NCBI GenBank assembly: GCA_003353955.1
Contig: PIVJ01000004.1
Span: forward strand, 1,608 to 65,607
Source: Bacteroidota bacterium
GTDB lineage: Bacteria > Bacteroidota > Bacteroidia > Bacteroidales > GCA-2711565
DNA length: 64,000 nt
Reading direction: 5' to 3'
Shown here one piece after another: positions 12,571 through 64,000 of the stretch; positions within the stretch are counted from its first letter, which is position 1; every line of letters starts with the position of its first letter. The notes under the pieces were generated by a model. The model was not told where the DNA came from, did no database searches, and saw only the letters and a list, made by a program, of their open reading frames with translations. Both the position numbers and the translations under genes were made by a program.

Positions 12571-12600
12571 ACGCTGGATTTTCGATCTGGCGTTTTTTTT
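12571..12600 (+). terminator. rho-independent terminator after the TlpA-like gene
   Basis: ACGCTGGAT-tttcg-ATCTGGCGT hairpin (two G.U pairs) followed by T8. The T-run abuts the convergent LutB-like stop. Confidence 0.6.
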
Positions 12601-13978
12601 ATTCCTGTTTTTTAATCTCCTTCCAAAGTCTATTAAATGATTTCTTTTCAACTATTGGTAATTCCCGATGGGAACCCCACGATTTTTTAAAGAATTTTTT
12701 TAATGCCAGATTTTTAGATTTTCCACCAAGCATATCCATTTTATTTCTATTAAGCATTGTTTTTTTCCACGTCCTCATTACGATCTTATCCTTAAATCCA
12801 GCATGTTTTTGTTTAACAGAGTCATTTCGATTAACCAATAATAATTCGTGCAAAGGGATTTTAACAGGGCAAACCTCTGTACAAGATCCGCATAATGAAG
12901 AGGCAAAGCTTTGGTGTTTATAATCCTTCATGCTTTTTAAAAACGGATTAATTACAGAGCCTATTGGTCCACTGTAGGTTGTATTATAAGTGTGACCCCC
13001 AATATTTTTATAGATTGGGCATGTATTTAAACAGGCACCACATCTTATACATGATAGTGCTTGCCTTTGTCTTTCTTGTTTTAATAAATTCGTTCGTTTA
13101 TTATCGAGCAATATCACATACATTTTTTCAGGGCCATCTGTTTCATCAGCTTTTTTTGGACCTGTGATAATTGAATTATAAACAGTTATTTTTTGGCCCG
13201 TTCCATATGTTGCCAATAATGGCCAAAATAAATCAAGATATCCAATACTGGGGATTAATTTTTCAACACCAACAACTACAATATGAATTTTAGGAAATGA
13301 AACAGACATGATACCATTTCCTTCATTTTCTGTTAATCCGATTCCACCAATATCGGCAACTAAAAAATTAGCTCCCGTAATTCCAATATCGGCATTTATT
13401 AATTTTTCTCGTAATAGATCTCTAACGATACTTGTTATTTTTTCGGGGGTTGCATTTTTAGGAGTATTAAATTTTTCATTAAAAAGTGCTGCCACGTCTT
13501 CTTTGGATTTATGCATCGCAGGCGTTACAATATGATACGGTTTTTCACCGGCAAGTTGAATAATATACTCACCTAAATCGGTTTCAACAGACTCAATATT
13601 CTTCTTTGTAAGAGCCTCATTTAACTCAATTTCTTCAGTGGTCATTGATTTTGATTTTACCACCTTGGTAGCACTGTGTTTCTTGGCTATTTCCAGAATT
13701 CCCTTAATTGCTTCTTTGTGATCTTGTGCCCAAATTACTTTTCCACCATTATTTCTAAAATTATCTTCAAACTGAATTAAATATTCATCAAGATCATTAA
13801 TAATTTTATACTTTAAAAAGGCAGCTCTTTCTTTAGCCTTTTCAAGTTTACTAAATTGTTTTTTACCTTCTATAACAGAATGATCGTATTTAGAAATATT
13901 GAAATTTATCTTTTTTCTGTGTTCCAGATCAAAAGCTTTAATTCCTGATTCCTTAATAAACTGATTATATATTTCCAA
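12599..13978 (-). CDS. LUD-domain iron-sulfur protein (LutB-like lactate utilisation protein B)
   Basis: Two ferredoxin-type clusters, CIRCGACLNTCP and CGSCTEVCP, follow an N-terminal LUD/DUF162-like domain. TTG start. Confidence 0.75.
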   Translation of the reverse strand: MEIYNQFIKESGIKAFDLEHRKKINFNISKYDHSVIEGKKQFSKLEKAKERAAFLKYKIINDLDEYLIQFEDNFRNNGGKVIWAQDHKEAIKGILEIAKKHSATKVVKSKSMTTEEIELNEALTKKNIESVETDLGEYIIQLAGEKPYHIVTPAMHKSKEDVAALFNEKFNTPKNATPEKITSIVRDLLREKLINADIGITGANFLVADIGGIGLTENEGNGIMSVSFPKIHIVVVGVEKLIPSIGYLDLFWPLLATYGTGQKITVYNSIITGPKKADETDGPEKMYVILLDNKRTNLLKQERQRQALSCIRCGACLNTCPIYKNIGGHTYNTTYSGPIGSVINPFLKSMKDYKHQSFASSLCGSCTEVCPVKIPLHELLLVNRNDSVKQKHAGFKDKIVMRTWKKTMLNRNKMDMLGGKSKNLALKKFFKKSWGSHRELPIVEKKSFNRLWKEIKKQE

Positions 13979-13984
13979 GTTAAT

Positions 13985-14419
13985 TTATTTTTTAGCTATT
14001 TTTTCAACTCTAACCAAATGTCTTCCACCTTCAAATTCTGTATTTAAAAAAACATTAACCATATTCAGGGCTAATTTAAAATCAACAAAACGTGCAGGTA
14101 TTGAAATAATATTAGCATTATTATGTTGACGAATTAAAGTAGATTGTTCTATATTCCAGCATAACCCGGCCCTAACATTTGGGTATTTATTTGCTGTCAT
14201 CTGAGCACCATTTCCACTACCACATAAAATAATTCCACGTTTATATTTTCCCGTATTAATAGCATATGCAAGTGGGTGAATCATATCAGGATAATCAACA
14301 CTCTCAAAAGAAAATGTACCATAATCCTTAATATCATAACCCATGCTTATTAATTTTTTCTTTAAATATTCCTTGGTTTCAAAGCCCCCATGATCAGATG
14401 CAATAGGTATAGTGCTCAT
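13985..14419 (-). CDS. rpiB: ribose-5-phosphate isomerase B
   Basis: 144 aa; IASDHGG and ILCGSGNGAQMTANK RpiB/LacAB motifs. Confidence 0.9.
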   Translation of the reverse strand: MSTIPIASDHGGFETKEYLKKKLISMGYDIKDYGTFSFESVDYPDMIHPLAYAINTGKYKRGIILCGSGNGAQMTANKYPNVRAGLCWNIEQSTLIRQHNNANIISIPARFVDFKLALNMVNVFLNTEFEGGRHLVRVEKIAKK

Positions 14420-14770
14420 TATTTTTATTATTGTTAATAAATTAATCTCCCAAATTTACTTAAAAAAATAGGTAGAGTAATTATCTTCCTAAGAATTAGA
14501 TAATTATTTTTTATCTTAATATTACTTTTTATATATTTTATTAATCATCAATATTTTATAAGTTTTTAACAATTTAATGTTTATATAAATTAACTATTGT
14601 TACTAAAAATTAATATTAAGATTTAATAATAATAAATTATTAACAGCTATCAATAATAAATTTATTTATCAATAATTATAAAAATTTATTTACTATTTAT
14701 CAACTTTTTATTTTTCAATTTTACTTATAATTTATGAACAGTTTAATAAAAAGTAATTTTGTTAATAATT

Positions 14771-14786
14771 AATTAAATATTTAATT
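14771..14786. repeat. 16-bp perfect palindrome AATTAAATATTTAATT, copy 1
   Basis: Exact self-complementary 16-mer, repeated identically at 14910-14925. Confidence 0.8.
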
Positions 14787-14909
14787 ATTAATTATTTATA
14801 ATTAATAACATTATTTAAAATATGTTAATTAAATTGTAAAAATAAATTTGTCAAGTATATTTTAAATTAGTTTTTATACCTATTAACAGTATATTATTAT
14901 TAATATAAA

Positions 14910-14925
14910 AATTAAATATTTAATT
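14910..14925. repeat. 16-bp perfect palindrome AATTAAATATTTAATT, copy 2
   Basis: Identical to 14771-14786. Lies 58 nt upstream of the nadA ATG. Confidence 0.8.
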
Positions 14926-14982
14926 AATAATAATACTAACATTATAAACTTAAAATATAAAAAATATTAATTTTGTTTTTCT

Positions 14983-15921
14983 ATGGATAATGTAAGGGAA
15001 ATTAAAAAGCTTCGGAAAGAAAAGGATGCAATTATTTTAGCACATTATTATCAGATTCCTGAAATACAGGATATAGCAGATTATGTTGGTGATAGTTTAG
15101 GATTAGCCCAAAAAGCTGAAAATACAAATGCAAAGTTAATTATTTTCGCAGGTGTACACTTTATGGCTGAAACCGCAAAAATTATTAATCCTAATATTAA
15201 AGTTTTATTACCGGATTTAGAAGCAGGTTGTTCATTAGCAGAATCATGTCCACCAGAAAAATTTAAAAAATTTAAAGAACAATATCCTGATCATTTAGTA
15301 ATATCATATATTAACTGTACAGCTGCTATAAAAACAATGTCTGATATTATTTGTACCTCTGGAAACGCTGTAAAAATTGTTGAATCATTACCAAAAAATC
15401 AAAAAATAATTTTTGCCCCTGATAAAAATTTAGGAGGTTATATTAATAATATTACAGGTAGAAAAATGGTATTATGGAATGGATTCTGTGAGGTACATGA
15501 TATTTTATCAATCGAAGCTATAATAAAATTAAAAATTAAAAATCCTGATGCAAAATTAGTGGCACATCCTGAATGTAAAGGCCAGGTTTTAGAACTTGCT
15601 GATTTTATTGGGTCAACCAATTCAATGCTTAATTTCACCAAAACAGATAAAAGTGAAAAATATATTATTGCAACCGAAAGTGGAATTTTACATCAAATGC
15701 AAAAAAATTCACCTAAAAAAGAATTTATAATTGTTCCAACTGATGAAACCTGTTCATGTAATGATTGTCCTTATATGAAACTTAATACATTAGAAAAATT
15801 GTATTTGTGTTTAAAAAATGAAGAACCGGAGATAAAATTATCTAATGAAATAATTAAGCAGGCAAAATTGCCTATCTTTAAAATGCTTAATATTTCAAAA
15901 AAACTGAACATAATCAAATAA
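14983..15921 (+). CDS. nadA: quinolinate synthase
   Basis: ILAHYYQ, GVHFMAET, HPEC and CSCNDCPYM motifs. Markedly AT-rich codon usage relative to its neighbours. Confidence 0.9.
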   Translation: MDNVREIKKLRKEKDAIILAHYYQIPEIQDIADYVGDSLGLAQKAENTNAKLIIFAGVHFMAETAKIINPNIKVLLPDLEAGCSLAESCPPEKFKKFKEQYPDHLVISYINCTAAIKTMSDIICTSGNAVKIVESLPKNQKIIFAPDKNLGGYINNITGRKMVLWNGFCEVHDILSIEAIIKLKIKNPDAKLVAHPECKGQVLELADFIGSTNSMLNFTKTDKSEKYIIATESGILHQMQKNSPKKEFIIVPTDETCSCNDCPYMKLNTLEKLYLCLKNEEPEIKLSNEIIKQAKLPIFKMLNISKKLNIIK

Positions 15922-16061
15922 ATTTTATTAAAATCAGTTAGTTTATAATGTAAGTATTAAAAAATAAAGCTTATATAAATAGACTTACACAGTGGGTTGT
16001 TAAAGGAAGAAAGGTAAATAAAAATTAATACATCTATATTAATAAAATACCTAATTAAAAA

Positions 16062-27316: not shown

Positions 27317-27400
27317 TACCCGGGGCCGGGGTCGAACCGGCACGAGTGTTACCTCACTGGTGTTTGAGACCAACGCGTCTACCAATTCCGCCACCCGGGC
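27317..27400 (-). tRNA. tRNA-Leu (anticodon CAA), no encoded CCA
   Basis: Reverse complement is GCCCGGGTGGCGGAATTGGTAGACGCGTTGGTCTCAAACACCAGTGAGGTAACACTCGTGCCGGTTCGACCCCGGCCCCGGGTA. It folds with a 7-bp acceptor, anticodon loop CT-CAA-AC, a long variable arm and T-loop TTCGACC. Confidence 0.9.
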
Positions 27401-55164: not shown

Positions 55165-55860
55165 TTAGCCGGTTTGACTAACCTTTTGTAAGGCTGGAAA
55201 ATCAAGAATTTCAAAATCATTCCCTTCACATTTTATAACTTTCGATACTTTAAATTCTTTAATGACACGAATAGCACTCTCTTTAGACATTGCGGCTAAA
55301 TCTGCAATATCCTGACGGCTGATGTTTACAGTAAATTTATCATTTTCATAAACCTCTTTTGATAAATAAATCAGGACATCAGCAATTCTTCCAGGCATTT
55401 GCTTTTGGGTGAGATTAATTAGTTTTTCAAAATATCGAATACCTCGCTGGTTAACCCATTTTATGAATTCAATTGAAAAAACGCTATTTTGCTTAACTAC
55501 CTCCATAATAGCTTCCACCTCAATAAAACATGCAGTAACATCACTAATAGCATTAACTGAATAGTAATGGCGAAAATCATTGAACATACCAGGCCCTGCA
55601 AGCATTTCGGTTGGGCGCAATATTTTGAGTAGCAAATTCTTTTTGTTGACACCCTCAATATAAACTTTTGCAAAACCAGTAGTAACACAAGCAATATGTG
55701 TTAAGGCTCCGCCCTGCTTAAAAATAGTTTCTCCTCGATTGAATTTTACCTCATGTCGATGTTCGTTGATATAGTTAGTTTCTTCATCGGTTAAAAATTG
55801 AAAAAGATTCTGTTTCTTAGAACAATTCTGACAAAATACTGCATTAACAAATAAAGGCAT
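55165..55860 (-). CDS. Crp/Fnr-family transcriptional regulator with N-terminal CxxC
   Basis: cNMP-binding-like beta-roll and a C-terminal HTH (SRQDIADLAAMSKESAIRVIKEF). Cys at positions 10, 13, 58 and 111. Divergent from the cytochrome locus. Confidence 0.85.
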   Translation of the reverse strand: MPLFVNAVFCQNCSKKQNLFQFLTDEETNYINEHRHEVKFNRGETIFKQGGALTHIACVTTGFAKVYIEGVNKKNLLLKILRPTEMLAGPGMFNDFRHYYSVNAISDVTACFIEVEAIMEVVKQNSVFSIEFIKWVNQRGIRYFEKLINLTQKQMPGRIADVLIYLSKEVYENDKFTVNISRQDIADLAAMSKESAIRVIKEFKVSKVIKCEGNDFEILDFPALQKVSQTG

Positions 55861-56176: not shown

Positions 56177-57253
56177 ATGAAAAAATTTACATTTTTAACT
56201 TTATTGACTGCGGTTTTTCTGTTTTCAATCGTTACGATGTCTAGTTGTACCAAAGAAGGAGCAGCCGGAACAGACGGTGTTGATGGACCAGCCGGTCCTC
56301 AGGGTATAGCCGGGGAAGCAGGGATTGATGGAACAGACGGTACTGCTGGATGTATTTTATGTCACACTGGTGGAGAAGAACAAGGTATGTTTGCTCAAAC
56401 TAACCAATGGGAGGCTTCAGTTCATGCTACTGGTGGTAATTTTGAAAGAAATACTAGCGATTGTGGAACTTGTCATACCAGTCAGGGGTTTCTTGCTAAC
56501 TTAGCAGGAACGTATGACGAGAATGTGGAAAATCCAAATCCAATTAACTGCTACACATGCCACAACATTCACAAAACATTTACTCCTGCTGACCTTGGAC
56601 TTACTGCTTCAGCAGGTGTTGAGTTAATGATTAATGGTGATGTCATTGATTTTGGAAAAGGTAATTTATGCGCCGTATGTCACCAACCAAGACTACCCGA
56701 TCCAATGCCAGTTGTTGGTGGTGGAGATTTTACAATTAGTTCTTCGTATTGGGGAGGTCACCATGGCCCTCAAACAACTACATTTGCTGGTACTGGGCTA
56801 TTCGAATTTAGTGGTACGGCATCACTTGGAACAAATGCGCACTATTTAACTATTGAAGATGGATGTATTACTTGCCATATGGCAGAAGCTGATGGCGTTG
56901 CCACAGGAGGGCATACTTTTAACGTAGCTGAACAAGATGCAGACGGTGTTTCCGGAGATCTCTCTCTGGCAGGTTGTATGGAATGTCACACTGACGAAGA
57001 TGTACTTGAAGCAGACATTGAAACATTACAGGATGATGTTCATCATTTATTAGCTGAACTTGCATTATTATTAAATGAGGAAGGAATTCTTGCTGTTGGT
57101 GATCATCAACCAACTCCAGGAACTTACAGTTCTGATGTTGCAGCTGCATTCTTAAACTGGGCTATGCTTGAAGAAGACAGAAGTTTTGGAGTACATAACC
57201 CTAAATATGTGATTGGTGTTTTGGAAAATACAATTGCAGAGCTTACGCCGTAA
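56177..57253 (+). CDS. lipoprotein hexahaem c-type cytochrome with N-terminal collagen-like (Gly-X-Y)10 segment
   Basis: ATG at 56177 gives MKKFTFLTLL..VTMSSC (lipobox). Haem motifs are CILCH, CGTCH, CYTCH, CAVCH, CITCH and CMECH. The C-terminal EDRSFGVHNPKY helix region resembles NrfA/HAO-class multihaem folds. Confidence 0.85.
   Translation: MKKFTFLTLLTAVFLFSIVTMSSCTKEGAAGTDGVDGPAGPQGIAGEAGIDGTDGTAGCILCHTGGEEQGMFAQTNQWEASVHATGGNFERNTSDCGTCHTSQGFLANLAGTYDENVENPNPINCYTCHNIHKTFTPADLGLTASAGVELMINGDVIDFGKGNLCAVCHQPRLPDPMPVVGGGDFTISSSYWGGHHGPQTTTFAGTGLFEFSGTASLGTNAHYLTIEDGCITCHMAEADGVATGGHTFNVAEQDADGVSGDLSLAGCMECHTDEDVLEADIETLQDDVHHLLAELALLLNEEGILAVGDHQPTPGTYSSDVAAAFLNWAMLEEDRSFGVHNPKYVIGVLENTIAELTP
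56258..56350 (+). repeat. collagen-like triplet repeat (coding)
   Basis: GAA GTD GVD GPA GPQ GIA GEA GID GTD GTA G: ten uninterrupted Gly-X-Y triplets ending directly at the first CxxCH. Confidence 0.85.
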
Positions 57254-57272
57254 TTTTGGTAGTTTACGATAT

Positions 57273-57307
57273 AAAAAAGGCTTCAATAATTTTAGGAGCC
57301 TTTTTTT
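57273..57307 (+). terminator. rho-independent terminator after the hexahaem gene
   Basis: AAAAGGCT..AGCCTTTT stem followed by T7. Confidence 0.6.
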
Positions 57308-57424
57308 GATTAAAATAATACTTAAAACAAATACGATGAAACGAACCCCAAAAATGCTTTCTTACACAAGGGTGATGATTAATTGGCGAGTTTCATATGA
57401 CCTTTTAAAATAAATTATAGACAC

Positions 57425-57835
57425 ATGAAAAAGACAATCTATATCTTGGGTCTGGCACTGATAGGAGTGATGTTTATTACAGGTTGCGAATATGAATTTA
57501 TTGCTCGCCCTTTGGTCATCATTGATCCAGTTGATCCAGATGATCCAGTTGACCCCAGTTTGATAAGTTTCGCTGGAGAAATCATACCTATTTTTACAAC
57601 TGGTAACCGGTGTACAAGTTGTCATGGAACAGGAGGGCAAGCACCCGTTTTAACAGCTACTCTGGCTTACAGCCAAATTATTTCACAGGGGCTTGTTAAT
57701 ACGGCAGATCCTTCTTCAAGCAAGCTCTATACGTATCCTAAAATAGGAGCTGGCACACATGTTTGGAAAACTTATTCTACCGATCAAGCCGCAGAGATAC
57801 TCCAATGGATAACAGAGGGCGCTAAAAACAATTAA
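57425..57835 (+). CDS. lipoprotein monohaem cytochrome c, PSCyt1 (Planctomycete cytochrome C)-like domain
   Basis: Lipobox ITGC, a DPVDPDDPVDP linker, then IIPIFTTGNRCTSCHG...ILQWITEGA, which follows the PSCyt1 pattern. Confidence 0.75.
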   Translation: MKKTIYILGLALIGVMFITGCEYEFIARPLVIIDPVDPDDPVDPSLISFAGEIIPIFTTGNRCTSCHGTGGQAPVLTATLAYSQIISQGLVNTADPSSSKLYTYPKIGAGTHVWKTYSTDQAAEILQWITEGAKNN

Positions 57836-57852
57836 TTAAAAAATCAGAAAAG

Positions 57853-58725
57853 ATGAAAAAACGTAACATAATTTTCGCATTCTTAATGTGTACAGGATTT
57901 TTATTCGCACAGGAAGAAGAGGCAAAACCTGAAAAAAAACCGGTTAGATCGCCCTTCGAAAGCGGTGTTTTAATCAATAATCAAACTGGAGTAATCCCAG
58001 ATGTCCGTACCCTTGAAATGATCATCGAGCATAACTTTGGCACCATTCAAAATGGAATTACTGATTTATATGGATTATACGCGCCATCAAACATCCGAAT
58101 TGGATTTAACTATAGTGTTACTGACAATATTATGATTGGATTTGGCACCACTAAATTTAGAAAACTTACTGACTTTAGATTTAAGTGGAGCTTTATAAAG
58201 CAATCCAGAGAAGGCGGTAGTCCGATTGCTGTTACTTATTATGGTAATATGGGTATTGACGGAAGAAATAAAGATGCTTTTGGTCTTCTATATATGTTTG
58301 AAGGTACTGATCGATTTTCATATTTCAACCAAATTATTATTGCCCGTAAATTTTGTGATGCTTTCTCATTTCAGGTAGCACCAAGTATTACTCATATTAA
58401 TAAGGTTGAGTTAACCGAAGAACATGATAGAGTTGCAATATCGTTTAGTGGTAGGTTAAAATTCAGCTATCAAGGATCAATTATTTTTAATTATGACGCA
58501 CCACTTAGTATTGAGGGAATTCAGGAGCACACAGAACTGGATTTTGAGTCCAAGCCAAGTTTGGCTTTTGGAGTAGAATTTGCCACTGGCACACACGCTT
58601 TCCAGATTTTTATGGGTACAGCGAACACACTTAGTCAGCAGTACAATATGATGACGAATGCTAATGACTGGAAAAATGGAGCCTTCTTTATCGGATTCAA
58701 CATTACCAGATTGTGGAATTTTTAA
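57853..58725 (+). CDS. outer-membrane beta-barrel protein, uncharacterised family
   Basis: Signal peptide (..FLFAQEE), alternating amphipathic beta-strand pattern and a C-terminal aromatic ..ITRLWNF. Starts 17 nt after the monohaem gene. Confidence 0.7.
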   Translation: MKKRNIIFAFLMCTGFLFAQEEEAKPEKKPVRSPFESGVLINNQTGVIPDVRTLEMIIEHNFGTIQNGITDLYGLYAPSNIRIGFNYSVTDNIMIGFGTTKFRKLTDFRFKWSFIKQSREGGSPIAVTYYGNMGIDGRNKDAFGLLYMFEGTDRFSYFNQIIIARKFCDAFSFQVAPSITHINKVELTEEHDRVAISFSGRLKFSYQGSIIFNYDAPLSIEGIQEHTELDFESKPSLAFGVEFATGTHAFQIFMGTANTLSQQYNMMTNANDWKNGAFFIGFNITRLWNF

Positions 58726-58884
58726 AGTATAATTAAAGAAGAAAAATATGATTACTGGAAGGGCACTTCTGATAAAGGGATTCAATCAAGTAATAGATGA
58801 TTATATATGAACTCTTAAATAATAGCAATTAAATTATTGGGTATTCTTTTTTAAGAACATTCTTTTTAATAAATAAATATCAGG

Positions 58885-59856
58885 ATGAAAGAAAAACTAA
58901 AAACCATTATTAAAATGGGGTTGTTTTTGATTCCTCTATTATTTTTTTACCTAGTGCTCATAGCGCAAAATCAAGAAGCTACCAGCACATTTGAATATGC
59001 TGAAGATAATCAGCAATGTCTAAAATGTCACGGACATACCTACTACAACTACTATAACGACTGGCTTGAGAGAATGATCAGGGAACGAATGAACCCTTAT
59101 TTTATCGTAGATTCGGCGGAGTATTATGAAGCCAATCACCGAAACTTCGCATGCATAGATTGCCACACATCAGAATACGAAAATTTTCCACACAATGGAG
59201 AGTTGCGCATGGAACCAAAATATGCTTGTATGGATTGCCATGGGGGTGATGATACATACGCCAAATTTAATTTTGAACAAATTGAATCTGAATTCTATAA
59301 TAGTATACATTCCTCAAAACATTCTGATGATTTTACCTGCTGGATGTGTCATAACCCACACTCCTATAAAATCAGTGCAAGAACTAACAGACACTTAAAT
59401 AAAACTATTCAGTACGACAATAACATTTGTTTAAGTTGTCATGCGGATATATCAAAATATCAGCTATTGACAACCCTGGAAAATCCAAATATTTTGGAAA
59501 CCCATAGTTGGCTTCCGAATCAAGTATTGCATTTTCAAAGTGTACGTTGCATTGAGTGTCATACCGAAATCAATAATTATATTTTGGTAGCTCATAATGT
59601 TCAAGCAAAAGATAAGGCGGTACAGCGTTGTGTTGAATGCCATTCTCAAAATTCAATATTGAAAGAAACCCTTTATAAGTATCAAAATGAAGGCTTCTCA
59701 TATAGTGAAAACAGAGATCGTAGTTTGGAGATTCCTAAATTAATCGGTGGTAATCGCCGATATATGTTGAACCTCGCCAGTGTAATTATCTTTATATTAG
59801 TTTTGGGAGGCATAAGCATTCATGCCGTTTTGCGTATCATTTTAAAACCAAGGTAG
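58885..59856 (+). CDS. membrane-anchored heptahaem c-type cytochrome
   Basis: Haem motifs CLKCH, CIDCH, CMDCH, CWMCH, CLSCH, CIECH and CVECH, with N-terminal and C-terminal hydrophobic helices. Confidence 0.85.
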   Translation: MKEKLKTIIKMGLFLIPLLFFYLVLIAQNQEATSTFEYAEDNQQCLKCHGHTYYNYYNDWLERMIRERMNPYFIVDSAEYYEANHRNFACIDCHTSEYENFPHNGELRMEPKYACMDCHGGDDTYAKFNFEQIESEFYNSIHSSKHSDDFTCWMCHNPHSYKISARTNRHLNKTIQYDNNICLSCHADISKYQLLTTLENPNILETHSWLPNQVLHFQSVRCIECHTEINNYILVAHNVQAKDKAVQRCVECHSQNSILKETLYKYQNEGFSYSENRDRSLEIPKLIGGNRRYMLNLASVIIFILVLGGISIHAVLRIILKPR

Positions 59857-59857
59857 T

Positions 59858-60478
59858 ATGTCTGAGAAATTATATTTATATCCACAATGGATCCGGGTTT
59901 GGCATGGTATAAATGCTATATTATGCTTGATATTGATTTTAACCGGACTGAGTATGCAATATTCCAATCCGGATACGGTCGTAATTATTCGATTTGATAT
60001 TGCTGTTAACCTTCATAATATTTCTGGCGTTATGTTATCCCTGAGTTATTTTTTATTCCTTATTGGAAATATGATAAGGCCAAATGGAAGGCATTACAAA
60101 ATTGTTGTAAAAGGGTTTTTGAAAGACCTGATGAAACAATTCATCTATTATGCTTATGGTTTATTCAAGGGCGAAAAAACACCTTTCCCAATAACAAAAG
60201 AGTCTAAATTTAATCCACTTCAAAGATTCACCTATATCATACTCATGTATTTTTTAGTACCTGCCGTAATATTAAGTGGGTGGGTGTTGATTTTTCCTGA
60301 CTTTATACAGAACAATTTATTTGGACAAGAGAGTATTCATTTGTTTGATTTATTTCATTTAATGACAGGTTTTGTTATTTCAGTATTCATGATTATTCAT
60401 GTTTATTTCTGTACATTGGGAAAAACTGCACTGAGAAATTTTAGAAGCATCATAAACGGATATCACGAATCACAGTAA
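59858..60478 (+). CDS. cytochrome b membrane subunit (cytochrome b561 / FdnI / PhsC-like)
   Basis: WIRVWHGINAILCLILILTGL opening helix and conserved His in later helices. The ATG is 1 nt after the heptahaem stop. Confidence 0.75.
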   Translation: MSEKLYLYPQWIRVWHGINAILCLILILTGLSMQYSNPDTVVIIRFDIAVNLHNISGVMLSLSYFLFLIGNMIRPNGRHYKIVVKGFLKDLMKQFIYYAYGLFKGEKTPFPITKESKFNPLQRFTYIILMYFLVPAVILSGWVLIFPDFIQNNLFGQESIHLFDLFHLMTGFVISVFMIIHVYFCTLGKTALRNFRSIINGYHESQ

Positions 60479-60522
60479 ATCAAATTATTAAACTACGATA
60501 TATTAACTGTTTGGAATTGAAG

Positions 60523-63318
60523 ATGAAGACACGTGATCATTTTAAACTATTGGCATTTCTAGCCATTTATTTGATGCAAGGAATTAATACCTTAAATGCA
60601 CAGTCAAACGAAGATTGCATGATGTGCCATGAGGATCCTGATATGGTTATGGTAAGAAATGGGAAAGAAATTTCCGTATTTGTTAACTCTGATGTGTTAA
60701 GAAAATCCATTCATACAGACGCTGATTGTATAATGTGTCATGAAGATGTGAACACTGAAGAATATCTACACTCCGATGACAGCAAAAAACTTCAAAATGT
60801 AAACTGTGGCAATTGTCATACAAGTGCCGATATGGGATTTAACAAAGGTATCCATGGTTTGGCATTAAAGCAAAATGGGCCCTTTGCACCTAATTGTAAG
60901 GATTGTCATGGTAGTCATGATATTTTGTCGGGTAGGCAGCCTGAATCACGTACTTATAAAATGAACATCCCCTTATTATGTGGCAGTTGCCATAAAGAGG
61001 GAGCGCCGGTTGACAGAATGTATAATTTAACAGAGCAAAATATTCTTGAAAATTATAGTCAGGGTATCCATGGCAAGGGATTATATGAGAGTGGTTTGTT
61101 TGTTACCGCAACCTGTAACGACTGTCATGGGAATCACTTTATTTTACCTGCTTCTAGCAATTACTCCACTGTTTCTACCAATAGAATCGCAAGCACTTGT
61201 ATGAAGTGTCATGTGAGAATTGAAAAAACACATAAAAAGGTAATAAAAAGCGAACTATGGAAATCAGAGCCAGACGCAATACCCTCATGTACCGAATGTC
61301 ATCCACCACACAAAGTAGAATACCAGAAGATTAATGAAACCGTTTCAAATCAATCCTGCTTAAAATGTCACAATAAAGATATTTCGGCAGGCGAATATCT
61401 TTTAAAACAAACTGGTGATACCATTCGTTTCGACTTATCACATTTATCAAATTCTGTCCATTTTAATATTCAGTGTACTAAATGTCATACCGATGTATCG
61501 CCCAAATTACAGAGGCCATGTGAAACCGTTGAGCGTGTTGATTGTTCTAATTGCCACGTTGAAGTTTCAAATCAATATTTTGATAGCGGACATGGCCACG
61601 CATTTCTTGAAAATCTTAAGAATGCGCCCTATTGTACAAATTGTCATGATACGCATGCTACGAAATCAAAATTTGATCAAACTTCACCAACTTATAGAGG
61701 TAACATACCACAGCTTTGTGGTTCGTGTCATAAAGAAGACGGGCAAGCTAATATGCAAACGCAACTAAAAGAGGTAACTGCTTTTTCTGACTACTCGCAA
61801 AGTACACATGGAAAAGGATTGACTGATAAAGGCCTACTAATAAGTGCAGTTTGTACTGATTGTCATACAACGCATCATGAGTTAAAGGAGTCAGATCCTT
61901 TATCATCTGTGAATTCTCAGAATATGGCAGCTACTTGTGCGCAATGCCATACCAGTATTTATAACGACTATGTTTCGAGCGAACATTCTATTGCTGATAG
62001 TGATGGAATACTGATATATCCCACATGCTCAACATGCCATTCAGCACATCTTATTAGTGATATTCAAGGGGATCAATTTATGAATGAAATTACCAATCAA
62101 TGTGGTAGTTGCCATACAAAATTATCCGAGACCTATCAGGAAACGTATCACGGTAAAGCTTATTTATTGGGTGATATGGATGCGGCAAGATGTTCTGATT
62201 GCCATGGGGCTCATAAAATTTTAAAAGTTGATAATCCTGATTCTGAAGTTGGCTATAAAAATATTGTTCAAACCTGTAAACAATGTCATAGTAATGCAAC
62301 ACTTGCTTTTACGGGCTACTTAACGCACGCTACACATAATGACAATAAGGTTTTACATTGGGCATTTTGGGCAATGACCTCATTACTTATTTTTGTGTTT
62401 GGTTCTTTCGGACTCCACACACTGTTCTGGTTACCACAATCACTTAAGCAGAGAAAGAAAAAGAAACATGAGGCAGCTATCCCAGGCTCGAAAAAGTATT
62501 ATCGCCGATTTAATAAAAGGCAGCGATTTACACATCTAATGATTATTATAAGCTTTATTCTATTAGCTATAACTGGGATGACCTTAAAATTCGCACATAT
62601 GGATTGGGCAAATTGGATTGCCAAACTACTTGGGGGAGTTCATTCAGCAGGTAATATTCATAGAGTTGCTGCTGTTATTACCTTTGCATATTTTACTTTT
62701 CATTTGTTGACTTTGTTTCAACTTAAAAGTAAAGCCGGTGTGAGTACCAAGGAATTTCTGTTTGGGAAAAACTCTTTGATGTTCAGCATACAAGATATAA
62801 GAGATTTTACAGCTTCAATGAAGTGGTTTTTTGGCAAAGGACCTCGTCCCCACTATGGTCGTTGGACTTATTGGGAAAAATTTGATTATATGGCAGTATT
62901 TTGGGGAGTTGCTGTAATTGGGTTCTCCGGCTTAATATTATGGTTCCCTGAATTTTTCACATTGTTTTTCCCGGGATGGGTAATAAACGTAGCTCAAATT
63001 ATTCACAGTGATGAAGCATTATTGGCAACCGGATTTATATTCACAATTCATTTCTTTAATACACACCTAAGACCCGAATCTTTCCCAATGGACACTGTTA
63101 TTTTTACAGGACATGTTCCATTGGATGAATACAAAGAAGATAGAAAAGCCGAATATGATGAGCTTGTGAAATCAGGTAAATTAGATGATGTAGTAGTTGA
63201 AAAAGAATTTAGCAAAGCTTGGTTGAAAACGATAAAATTCTTTGGCTACTTATTCCTATCACTTGGTATAGCTATTGTTATTTTGATAATCTATTCTTTA
63301 CTTGTGGGCAAATATTAA
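60523..63318 (+). CDS. 19-haem c-type cytochrome fused to a C-terminal cytochrome b membrane domain
   Basis: Signal peptide from the ATG at 60523 and 19 CxxCH motifs counted up to about nt 62300. From about 62341 come TM helices with RFTHLMIIISFILLAITGM and IHSDEALLATGFIFTIHFFNTH, paralogous to 59858-60478. Confidence 0.85.
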   Translation: MKTRDHFKLLAFLAIYLMQGINTLNAQSNEDCMMCHEDPDMVMVRNGKEISVFVNSDVLRKSIHTDADCIMCHEDVNTEEYLHSDDSKKLQNVNCGNCHTSADMGFNKGIHGLALKQNGPFAPNCKDCHGSHDILSGRQPESRTYKMNIPLLCGSCHKEGAPVDRMYNLTEQNILENYSQGIHGKGLYESGLFVTATCNDCHGNHFILPASSNYSTVSTNRIASTCMKCHVRIEKTHKKVIKSELWKSEPDAIPSCTECHPPHKVEYQKINETVSNQSCLKCHNKDISAGEYLLKQTGDTIRFDLSHLSNSVHFNIQCTKCHTDVSPKLQRPCETVERVDCSNCHVEVSNQYFDSGHGHAFLENLKNAPYCTNCHDTHATKSKFDQTSPTYRGNIPQLCGSCHKEDGQANMQTQLKEVTAFSDYSQSTHGKGLTDKGLLISAVCTDCHTTHHELKESDPLSSVNSQNMAATCAQCHTSIYNDYVSSEHSIADSDGILIYPTCSTCHSAHLISDIQGDQFMNEITNQCGSCHTKLSETYQETYHGKAYLLGDMDAARCSDCHGAHKILKVDNPDSEVGYKNIVQTCKQCHSNATLAFTGYLTHATHNDNKVLHWAFWAMTSLLIFVFGSFGLHTLFWLPQSLKQRKKKKHEAAIPGSKKYYRRFNKRQRFTHLMIIISFILLAITGMTLKFAHMDWANWIAKLLGGVHSAGNIHRVAAVITFAYFTFHLLTLFQLKSKAGVSTKEFLFGKNSLMFSIQDIRDFTASMKWFFGKGPRPHYGRWTYWEKFDYMAVFWGVAVIGFSGLILWFPEFFTLFFPGWVINVAQIIHSDEALLATGFIFTIHFFNTHLRPESFPMDTVIFTGHVPLDEYKEDRKAEYDELVKSGKLDDVVVEKEFSKAWLKTIKFFGYLFLSLGIAIVILIIYSLLVGKY

Positions 63319-63438
63319 ATCTAAATAAACTAAGAAATAGATTGTTTTAATAATTGGTACTAAATTTGAAGTTAAATATAATAAATAAAAAGATCGAAAC
63401 ATTTTTTAATAAACACAATTAAATAAAGCTAAAAAACC

Positions 63439-63927
63439 ATGATAATCAGAGGTTTAATAATCGTTTGTCTTGTTGTATTTCTAGGAAGTAATAACTTGGC
63501 AGCTCAAGATTTTGAGTATGTTGGATCTAAAAAATGTAAGATGTGTCATAATAAAGCTCCTAAGGGCGCACAGTACAAACAATGGGCTGAGTCATCACAC
63601 GCTAAGGCAATGGAGTCTCTGAGTGCGGAAGAAGCAAAAGATCCCACATGTTTAAAGTGTCATTCAACAGTTGGTCATGTTGATCCGGATCTTGTTGCAA
63701 CCTTAAAAGTTACAGAAGGTGTTTCATGTGAGTCTTGCCATGGGCCAGGTAGTAAATACTCTCCAAAGTCAGTTATGAGAGATCGTGCTAAATCTATTGC
63801 AAAAGGATTAATTCTTCCTATAGAAGAAGTTTGTATAACATGTCATAATGATGAGAGTCCACACTTTAAAGGTTTTGATTTTGCAGAATATGTTGAAAAA
63901 GTTTCACATCCTGACCCATCAAAATAA
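63439..63927 (+). CDS. periplasmic tetrahaem cytochrome c (cytochrome c554/NrfB-like small multihaem)
   Basis: Signal peptide; haem motifs CKMCH, CLKCH, CESCH and CITCH; W..S.H after the first haem motif. Confidence 0.8.
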   Translation: MIIRGLIIVCLVVFLGSNNLAAQDFEYVGSKKCKMCHNKAPKGAQYKQWAESSHAKAMESLSAEEAKDPTCLKCHSTVGHVDPDLVATLKVTEGVSCESCHGPGSKYSPKSVMRDRAKSIAKGLILPIEEVCITCHNDESPHFKGFDFAEYVEKVSHPDPSK

Positions 63928-63949
63928 CATAATACATTAAAAAATCAAA

Positions 63950-63982
63950 CCTCCCGCATCACTGACGCAGGAGGTTTTTTTT
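63950..63982 (+). terminator. rho-independent terminator closing the cytochrome locus
   Basis: CCTCCCGC-atcactga-cGCAGGAGG followed by T8. Confidence 0.75.
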
Positions 63983-64000
63983 ATTGTGTGTTTTTAAAGT

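Follow-up and report, generated by a model that had tools for sequence, protein, structure and literature searches.

The last part of a 64,000-nucleotide stretch of Bacteroidota DNA (contig PIVJ01000004.1 of assembly GCA_003353955.1; this whole stretch is called the window, and coordinates refer to it) holds seven plus-strand genes, here A to G, which between them encode five c-type cytochromes, two membrane modules of the cytochrome b type and one outer-membrane β-barrel. On balance the locus is probably an anaerobically regulated respiratory branch of the Geobacter type, in which electrons from menaquinol are sent outward to cytochromes anchored in the outer membrane. The outer-membrane step is far less secure than the assignments made at the inner membrane. 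The inner-membrane proteins add members to known families that surveys already catalogue in Bacteroidota; what is new is a single operon uniting all three oxidase types, a recurring core in which B and C are linked to F, and a set of undescribed outer-membrane components which are not Mtr-like. An initial annotation of the same DNA had read the locus as electron wiring, rooted in quinol-coupled b/c modules and connected with a β-barrel of the outer membrane and with cytochromes that are lipoproteins, and that much is upheld; the novelty it claimed for the inner-membrane parts and the Mtr-like step it proposed at the outer membrane are not.

The seven open reading frames (ORFs) lie where the initial annotation had placed them, and its count by eye of 37 CxxCH haem sites and no CxxCK agrees with a script count of 6, 1, 0, 7, 0, 19 and 4 motifs in A to G; CX3CH and CX4CH are likewise absent from the seven genes. 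In the five cytochromes 74 of the 76 cysteines fall within haem motifs, shuffled versions of the same proteins contain a mean of 0.16 and a maximum of 3 such motifs, and no other ORF of the 64-kb window carries a CxxCH. The domains that Pfam and NCBIfam find in the seven genes are of three kinds only, namely those of multihaem cytochromes, DUF5777 in C, and Ni_hydr_CYTB in E and at the C-terminal end of F (the two b-type modules already suspected). No Mo, Fe-S or haem-copper domain is among them, which agrees with the proposal of wiring that lacks a catalytic subunit.

The inner-membrane modules and the likely periplasmic carrier

CbcBA is described by Joshi et al. as a periplasmic heptahaem cytochrome, CbcA, whose C-terminal transmembrane helix gives a histidine to a b haem, together with CbcB, a dihaem b subunit of four transmembrane helices that is typically annotated 'thiosulfate reductase-like'. 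The defining features of both are found in D and E. The hydrophobic ends that had been noticed in D (58885..59856, +; seven CxxCH) are an N-terminal signal or anchor helix at residues 8-26 and a C-terminal transmembrane helix at 297-315 that bears His313. Seven haem motifs are kept in 24 of 24 homologues, and H313 and seven further histidines in 25 of 25, the latter seven sufficing to give every haem of D bis-His ligation. The sole PDB sequence match of D is to 28pb_A, a functionally unnamed 'Cytochrome c' of 278 residues with which it is collinear (E = 3e-8). The start codon of E (59858..60478, +) stands 1 bp past the stop codon of D. E has no PDB sequence match and seems to be a dihaem cytochrome b of the HydC/FdnI/PhsC class, with four transmembrane helices, a Ni_hydr_CYTB match at E = 1.4e-24, PhsC as the best NCBIfam model (1.1e-49, below cut-off) and H16, H53, H167 and H181 conserved in 25-26 of 26 sequences. 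Judged by its sequence, the pair D-E bears the CbcA-CbcB signature. The sigma54/BccR-type regulator context of CbcBA is not found, the upstream regulator being of the Crp/Fnr type, and a sigma54 two-component pair is seen solely in one Ignavibacteria-type locus (L084). Homologous cbcBA clusters have been reported in Marinilabiliales, Prolixibacter and Labilibaculum (Joshi et al.).

F (60523..63318, +) is a protein of 931 residues in which a 19-haem periplasmic domain is fused to a dihaem b domain of six transmembrane helices (Ni_hydr_CYTB at residues 662-841), and its sequence makes it a member of the catalogued CbcL/MtrH/MtoC subfamily. The helices are collinear with the six of Geobacter CbcL (GSU0274), at offsets of 0/59/102/177/213/297 in F and 0/66/114/192/226/304 in CbcL, and in both proteins 28 residues separate the last haem from the first helix; histidines 632, 671, 713, 727, 843 and 848 of the membrane domain are invariant. 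F is not a CbcL in the strict sense of nine haems and about 619 residues. The survey of CbcL/MtrH/MtoC homologues by Zhong & Shi (2018) spans 15 phyla and proteins of 3-23 haem motifs, and its Table S2 contains 19-motif, six-helix proteins of Bacteroidetes and Ignavibacteria; F shares with these the length class (913-952 residues), the 19 CX2CH motifs, the spacing pattern and the six transmembrane helices, and its motif spacing is that of PKP08298.1 and OGU58019.1 to within 1-3 residues. Those entries are sequences alone, whereas F is seen here within an operon, linked to B-C and accompanied by outer-membrane genes. A spacing module of 30/28/45/28 occurs twice in F (residues 1-590, window 60523-62290), and haems 5-9 of CbcL carry a similar module once, as 29/28/43/28, which suggests that a CbcL-like module was duplicated internally to give the 19-haem domain. 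Full-length homologues of F number more than 100, at 59-90 % identity and mostly from metagenome-assembled genomes (MAGs) of Bacteroidales, Marinilabiliales and other Bacteroidota, and exactly 19 motifs are kept in 74 of 90 F-like ORFs. A genome scan places F-type genes in at least 597 species genomes, over a range that takes in Bacteroidota, Ignavibacteriota, Calditrichota, Latescibacterota, KSB1, Zixibacteria, Aminicenantes/Acidobacteriota and Gemmatimonadota. F itself has no PDB sequence match.

The third oxidase type is met in the neighbouring gene of 499 residues; the window ends (64000) before it, and the ImcH signature was tested on that gene in two relatives (L001 and L002) and 31 other loci. 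As published, ImcH has three transmembrane helices, seven haems and a NapC/NirT-like region, its haem 1 is ligated by H137 and Q179, and E127, K173 and Y188 are conserved. The positions corresponding to E127, K173, Q179 and Y188 lie at −10, +36, +42 and +51 from the first haem histidine, and in 32 of the 33 neighbour ORFs they are occupied by E/D, K, Q and Y/F/I. The ORFs have three transmembrane helices and six CxxCH plus one CX3CH, and their histidine spacing of 24/49/110/117/20/41 is that of the Draconibacterium sediminis ImcH homologue (Table S3) and close to the 24/49/106/117/20/38 of G. sulfurreducens ImcH (GSU3259). By these sequence features the neighbour is an ImcH homologue, and it forms part of the conserved unit. 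The initial annotation had held that the individual architectures do not match those of Geobacter systems, which is wrong for four proteins, namely D, E, F and this neighbour. NrfA was considered as a hidden catalytic partner downstream and rejected, as the 499-residue neighbour has neither a Cytochrom_C552 match nor a CxxCK and is ImcH-type.

G (63439..63927, +) is a small secreted tetrahaem cytochrome with a type-I signal peptide, matched by PF13435 (E = 1e-12, 49.2 bits against a cut-off of 20.8), by cytochrome c554 (PDB 1BVB, E = 1.6e-7 over residues 24-145) and by 6i5b_A, an 'Uncharacterized protein' of 526 residues (E = 3e-13). These matches make G likely to be a periplasmic shuttle of the c554 type. 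The exact G protein is absent from database records, and its context was drawn from F homologues.

Extent, conservation and regulation of the unit

To assess synteny, the proteins of the window were compared by BLAST with the ORFs of 84 loci that had been fetched via F homologues. A block of regulator-A-B-C-D-E-F-G, the regulator being of the Crp/Fnr type, recurs in about 20 Bacteroidota species genomes, and the operon is present in the cultured Maribellus sp. YY47 (L028). In one 4.05-Mb genome (L002) synteny with the window extends from TrkA to G, and past the equivalent of base 64000 come the convergent ImcH-type gene, ResB and CcsA, the last two being system II haem-attachment genes found past the window end in relatives. 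The closest relative (L001, F 90 % identical) has the same downstream order, and in both genomes the convergent gene lies 69-82 bp after G. In Prolixibacteraceae, Draconibacterium and Maribellus the ImcH-type gene stands between F and G on the same strand, and it is on this account that it is assigned to the operon. The conserved unit thus exceeds seven genes: the seven of the initial annotation are real, and to them belong the divergent regulator at 55165..55860 (−) and, in close relatives, the ImcH-type gene and ResB/CcsA.

Outside Bacteroidota F is accompanied by the ImcH-type gene (33 of the 84 loci) and by G (39 of 84), not by A-E. Within the unit a core of B-C directly upstream of F is kept even in loci whose neighbourhood lacks D, E and G (L012, L014 and L026), and the B-C pair is intact in every C-bearing locus that is not cut by a contig end. 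No catalytic subunit is constantly linked in the roughly 20 syntenic loci; constant linkage to a known reductase or oxidase had been named beforehand as something that would tell against a conduit, and it is not seen. The Bacteroidota host that had been supposed is borne out by a homologue of B that shares 99 % identity with a protein from a MAG labelled 'Bacteroidetes bacterium' at NCBI.

The 231-residue regulator has a homologue flanking the locus in 19 of the 84 loci. Its NCBIfam matches to CRP, FnrL and Fnr are weak and all below cut-off, and cysteines C10, C13, C58 and C111 are kept in 15-20 of 21 homologues, a pattern that resembles the Fe-S ligands of FNR and from which an Fe-S oxygen-sensor role may be predicted.

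Two hairpins bear on the transcription of the locus, and both had been called terminators in the initial annotation. The one between A and B (57273..57306, +) has a 12-bp stem followed by a U-run and folds at −14.9 kcal/mol (z −4.3, none of 200 shuffles folding equally well), and could act as an internal terminator or attenuator; a consensus terminator scan missed it because its loop is 10 nt. The one that closes the operon (63947..63977) folds at −14.4 kcal/mol (z −2.9) and is followed by U8 on the plus strand, and a T-run on the minus strand allows a terminator reading there too, so it seems to be bidirectional. The suggested sub-operons A, B-C, D-E-F and G fit the gene spacings and the A-B hairpin.

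Elsewhere F keeps varied company. Two of the B-C-F loci without D, E and G have a 16-haem F paralogue of about 800 residues downstream of the 19-haem F (L012 5085-7481 and L026 14037-16517). An F orthologue of 61 % identity (L003 93-8838, GCA_020444515.1, and likewise L004) stands beside a different cluster, of cytochromes with 11, 4, 5 and 14 haems, the 14-haem one fused to OmpA, together with NHL-repeat proteins and a 667-residue protein without a Pfam match that could be a larger porin. In the Ignavibacteria-type 'Chlorobi' CHB1 (L084 3666-22406) an F-G-ImcH core sits inside a larger island that also encodes a PAS histidine kinase and a sigma54 response regulator, a second c::b fusion of 742 residues, a Rieske/cytochrome b pair, a 528-residue multihaem cytochrome, an MtrC-like cytochrome and an A-like cytochrome with a collagen stalk. 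Right after ResB/CcsA in the closest relative (L001 9199-11601) lie genes for a small cytochrome c7, a 4Fe-4S protein and an NrfD-type membrane subunit, absent in L002, which may form a fourth quinol-interacting module.

As for the rest of the window, its similar G+C content and housekeeping genes speak against the locus being a genomic island. G+C falls to 23 % at 14001-16000, against about 35 % elsewhere, in a stretch that takes in a spacer (14420-14982) and the start of the NadA (quinolinate synthase) gene. A LutB-like lactate-utilisation protein (LUD domain and 4Fe-4S) is encoded at 12599-14419 (−), adjoining an ORF of 144 residues; lactate served Labilibaculum isolates as electron donor when they reduced Mn(IV), according to the paper describing them. 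A single tRNA gene at 27317-27400 (−) is the window's only Rfam match at the gathering threshold.

The outer-membrane proteins

C (57853..58725, +) had been recognised as a signal-peptide β-barrel ending in ITRLWNF, that is with a C-terminal aromatic residue, and this is confirmed by a PF19089 (DUF5777) match covering the profile from 1 to 247 of 247 (E = 6.6e-75, 252 bits against a cut-off of 23.1) and by an AlphaFold2 model of 12 strands (predicted local distance difference test score, pLDDT, 84.9; predicted template-modelling score 0.80). The 50 Foldseek matches listed for this model are small barrels of 12-14 strands only (OmpG, Tsx, FapF, COG4313 and KdgM-like; template-modelling scores of about 0.5), and no MtrB-type barrel is among them. 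By standard barrel geometry the Cα diameter is about 23 Å for 12 strands, 31 Å for the 16 of Cyc2 and 47 Å for the 26 of MtrB, and the modelled barrel would accordingly be too narrow to sheath a cytochrome. With a monohaem partner in place of a decahaem one, the Mtr or porin-cytochrome logic that had been proposed for the outer membrane finds no support. It follows from such a 12-strand barrel that porin-cytochrome logic is not to be read from gene content alone, a caution for metagenome surveys that count any neighbouring barrel and cytochrome genes. Clustering at 50 % leaves 1,877 representatives of the DUF5777 family, almost all of them about 290 residues long; P0393 and P0414 have N-terminal extensions without CxxCH, and P0309 is a double barrel. 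DUF5777 is not mentioned in the literature searched.

That partner, B (57425..57835, +), is encoded 17 bp upstream of C. As had been supposed for both A and B, it has a lipobox, and its lipid-bearing cysteine stands in a conserved C-x-Y-[DE]-F, followed by a variable linker rich in Pro and Asp and a domain with one CxxCH; the family has one other conserved histidine, no conserved methionine and an invariant C-terminus of WITEGAKNN. His/His ligation is predicted for the haem of B and would lead to a low potential. B has no Pfam match at E <= 0.01, and its AlphaFold2 model is poor: the pLDDT is 54, and it falls below 50 over most of residues 16-55.

Related pairs turn up apart from F. In a KSB1 genome (L086 82-8970, GCA_042576465.1) a B-like protein of 127 residues, 36 % identical to B and with CX4CH (CNYSPCH) in place of CxxCH, precedes a DUF5777 barrel, after which come a class I cytochrome c, CbcA-like and CbcB-like proteins, a 4Fe-4S protein, NrfD, ResB and CcsA, so that here the barrel pair is tied to CbcBA without F. 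At L090 4591-5876 (also L091 2578-3863) a 126-residue lipoprotein with CX4CH (CNSSSCH) has a DUF5777 barrel directly behind it, and in L090 the two stand alone between the genes for TGT and for DNA polymerase III tau, no multihaem cytochrome being near; such a stand-alone pair makes the lipoprotein and barrel an autonomous module. A distant DUF5777 barrel (L085 3110-5865) adjoins a dihaem cytochrome c of 338 residues, and a neighbouring 295-residue lipoprotein has two repeats ending in Y-H-C-S-V-H-x-P-M-T-G, with the look of a tandem cupredoxin (blue-copper) protein.

A (56177..57253, +) is a hexahaem lipoprotein with a match to Pfam MtrC/MtrF domain II/IV (E = 4.5e-11) and no PDB sequence match. 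Its lipobox (Cys24) is followed by a conserved C-[TV]-K-E-G-P, and the gap from the lipidated Cys24 to haem 1 is filled by 11 consecutive GXY triplets, which justify the earlier description of A as collagen-like although Pfam Collagen stays below its cut-off. Of 23 homologues 19 have a run of six or more triplets, placed in every case immediately ahead of haem 1 and kept at overall identities of only 24-65 %, and six triplets are reached in 5 of 5000 shuffles. If triple-helical, a stalk of 7-12 triplets would be 60-100 Å long, and the cytochrome possibly trimeric. Neither a collagen-like multihaem cytochrome nor such an operon in Bacteroidota is described in the literature searched.

Electron flow, rival readings and known systems

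The respiratory branch favoured here would serve as an electron sink for a fermentative Bacteroidales bacterium, with Fe(III), Mn(IV), humic-type or similar acceptors beyond the cytoplasmic membrane. By homology three alternative quinol:cytochrome-c oxidoreductases (D-E, F and the ImcH-type protein) would feed the periplasm, and the adjoining ResB/CcsA would attach the haems; in Geobacter the CbcBA, CbcL and ImcH types serve different windows of acceptor potential. The FNR-like Fe-S regulator may turn the operon on when oxygen is absent. G and the long haem domain of F would carry electrons over the periplasm, the 19-haem chain perhaps reaching much of the way to the outer membrane and passing electrons to B. 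As C is too narrow for a cytochrome, the outer-membrane step cannot work like MtrAB. B, flexibly tethered at C, may instead cap the periplasmic mouth of the barrel so that small or chelated acceptors enter the pore, in a reversal of Cyc2 logic, and A on its stalk would be the distal, acceptor-facing cytochrome if flipped to the surface like many Bacteroidota lipoproteins. Flow is probably outward, because ImcH homologues have been reported from Fe(III) reducers only, CbcBA operates at the low-potential limit of reduction (Joshi et al.), and isolates of Labilibaculum, which belong to the Bacteroidota and have a G+C content of 35-37 %, reduce Mn(IV) as well as Fe(III), the latter both as citrate and as oxides, the responsible genes being left unnamed by the authors of that work.

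Several points weigh against this outward branch, most of them at the outer membrane. A 12-strand barrel with a single-haem partner offers no known mechanism for crossing an outer membrane of about 30 Å, and the reach of the 19-haem chain is an estimate. No B::C fusion of the Rosetta-stone kind was found in the 31 B homologues or in the best 150 DUF5777 representatives, and the stand-alone pairs among housekeeping genes mean that the function of B-C may not be specific to extracellular electron transfer. The sequences that follow the lipidated cysteines of A and B resemble the acidic surface-export signal of Bacteroidota only partly. At the inner membrane, membership in the Geobacter families was judged by published coordinates, signatures and survey tables, an indirect comparison, and proteins of the CbcL/MtrH/MtoC family occur in Fe(II) oxidisers as well.

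The strongest alternative, possible if doubtful, is a chain confined to the periplasm, in which A and B would face inward from the inner leaflet, C would be a solute channel or docking site, and soluble acceptors (chelated Fe(III), small quinones, metalloid oxyanions and the like) would diffuse in and be reduced there. The likeness of C to the substrate channels Tsx, KdgM/VhGalP, COG4313 and OmpG, its inability to hold a cytochrome and the single haem of B all suit such a chain, and the default orientation of a lipoprotein that lacks a clear export signal is towards the periplasm. The conserved collagen-like stalk of A, however, has no obvious periplasmic use, such stalks being typical of surface-projecting proteins; the tight co-inheritance of B-C with F suggests more than a generic channel; and Labilibaculum reduces solid Fe and Mn oxides. 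At the other extreme B-C could be a minimal two-component device for moving electrons across the outer membrane, unrelated to MtrAB and Cyc2 and plugged by F, with A as a trimeric surface 'antenna', a picture that is speculative and on present evidence unlikely.

Rather improbable is a general periplasmic hub, comparable to CymA, NapC or a bc complex, that would feed reductases or oxidases encoded elsewhere (a nitrite reductase, a cbb3 oxidase, peroxidases or NrfD-type complexes). The lack of a catalytic subunit in the locus, the c554-type soluble carrier G, the place of ImcH in the NapC/NirT/NrfH class and the cytochrome c7-FeS-NrfD module near the locus in some relatives (L001 and L086) would be accounted for, but extracellular electron transfer in Geobacter has been shown to require three oxidases, CbcBA, CbcL and ImcH, all three types are here inherited together with an outer-membrane barrel and a pair of lipoprotein cytochromes, and the NrfD modules are not conserved across the syntenic loci. 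Inward flow, in which B-C would be a Cyc2-like Fe(II) oxidase split over two proteins and F an MtoC-like protein that reduces the quinone pool or feeds an oxidase, is very unlikely, for while the members that the F family has in Fe(II) oxidisers and the Cyc2-like combination of a monohaem protein (with a partial PxF...CxxCH...PxL resemblance in B) and a small barrel speak for it, the ImcH and CbcBA affiliations point to reduction, Cyc2 features are wanting in B-C, the regulator looks like an anaerobic one of the FNR type and the carriers are fermentative or facultative anaerobes.

Fermentative Bacteroidota are abundant in anoxic sediments, and some isolates reduce Fe(III) and Mn(IV) without genes having been tied to the trait; the operon is a concrete and conserved candidate for Fe and Mn reduction by sediment Bacteroidota, and the best so far. 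The cultured Maribellus sp. YY47 carries it, and an ImcH homologue is listed for the cultured Draconibacterium sediminis. Three potential-specific types of quinol oxidase occurring together far outside Desulfuromonadota make the model of branched, potential-tuned extracellular electron transfer testable in a second phylum, and the locus gives a first functional context to DUF5777 (about 1,900 clusters at 50 % identity). Should B-C indeed be an electron-transfer device, it would be a third architecture by which electrons pass through the outer membrane, widespread and the main one in bacteria of the Fibrobacteres-Chlorobi-Bacteroidetes (FCB) group.

Set beside Geobacter, the operon or its adjoining gene presents all three architectures, those of ImcH (GSU3259), CbcL (GSU0274) and CbcBA (GSU0593-0594), and D-E, F and the neighbour resemble the Geobacter oxidases in needing no Fe-S, flavin or Mo subunits. 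The genes for ImcH, CbcL and CbcBA are dispersed in Geobacter, whereas here they are clustered in one operon, or in an operon plus an adjoining gene. F differs from CbcL in having 19 haems rather than 9, by way of the internal repeat of a spacing module, the regulator is of the Crp/Fnr type instead of the sigma54/BccR type, and no PpcA-type trihaem gene or Omb/Ext porin-cytochrome gene adjoins the locus.

At the outer membrane the likeness to MtrCAB of Shewanella and to OmaB-OmbB-OmcB and ExtABCD of Geobacter is that a barrel gene stands beside cytochrome genes, including one for a lipoprotein multihaem cytochrome. MtrAB has a large barrel of about 20-26 strands that encloses a multihaem cytochrome, and a gene for a periplasmic 8-10-haem cytochrome lies beside that for the barrel; C has 12 strands, its partner B is a monohaem protein and not an insert of 8-10 haems, and there is no sheath-and-wire geometry. 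A departs from the surface cytochromes of those systems in its six haems on a collagen-like stalk. Cyc2 comes closer to B-C in that one haem is combined with a small barrel, the cytochrome plausibly plugging the periplasmic mouth while substrate enters the pore. Cyc2, however, is a single polypeptide of at least 365 residues in which an N-terminal monohaem domain is fused to a 16-strand porin, where B-C consists of two genes, a barrel of 12 strands and a lipoprotein; the Cyc2 pattern of AXPXFAR[Q/K][T/Y] upstream of CXXCH and PXL downstream of it is replaced in B by I-x-P-I-F...CxxCH...P-x-L at a different spacing, and the context of B-C points to reduction. The stalk of A finds its counterparts in Scl1/2, BclA and Lcl, where a GXY run rich in T, D, N and P likewise forms the spacer between an anchor and a functional domain; in the A family the run is just 7-12 triplets long, and it rises from a lipoprotein anchor and bears a multihaem cytochrome.

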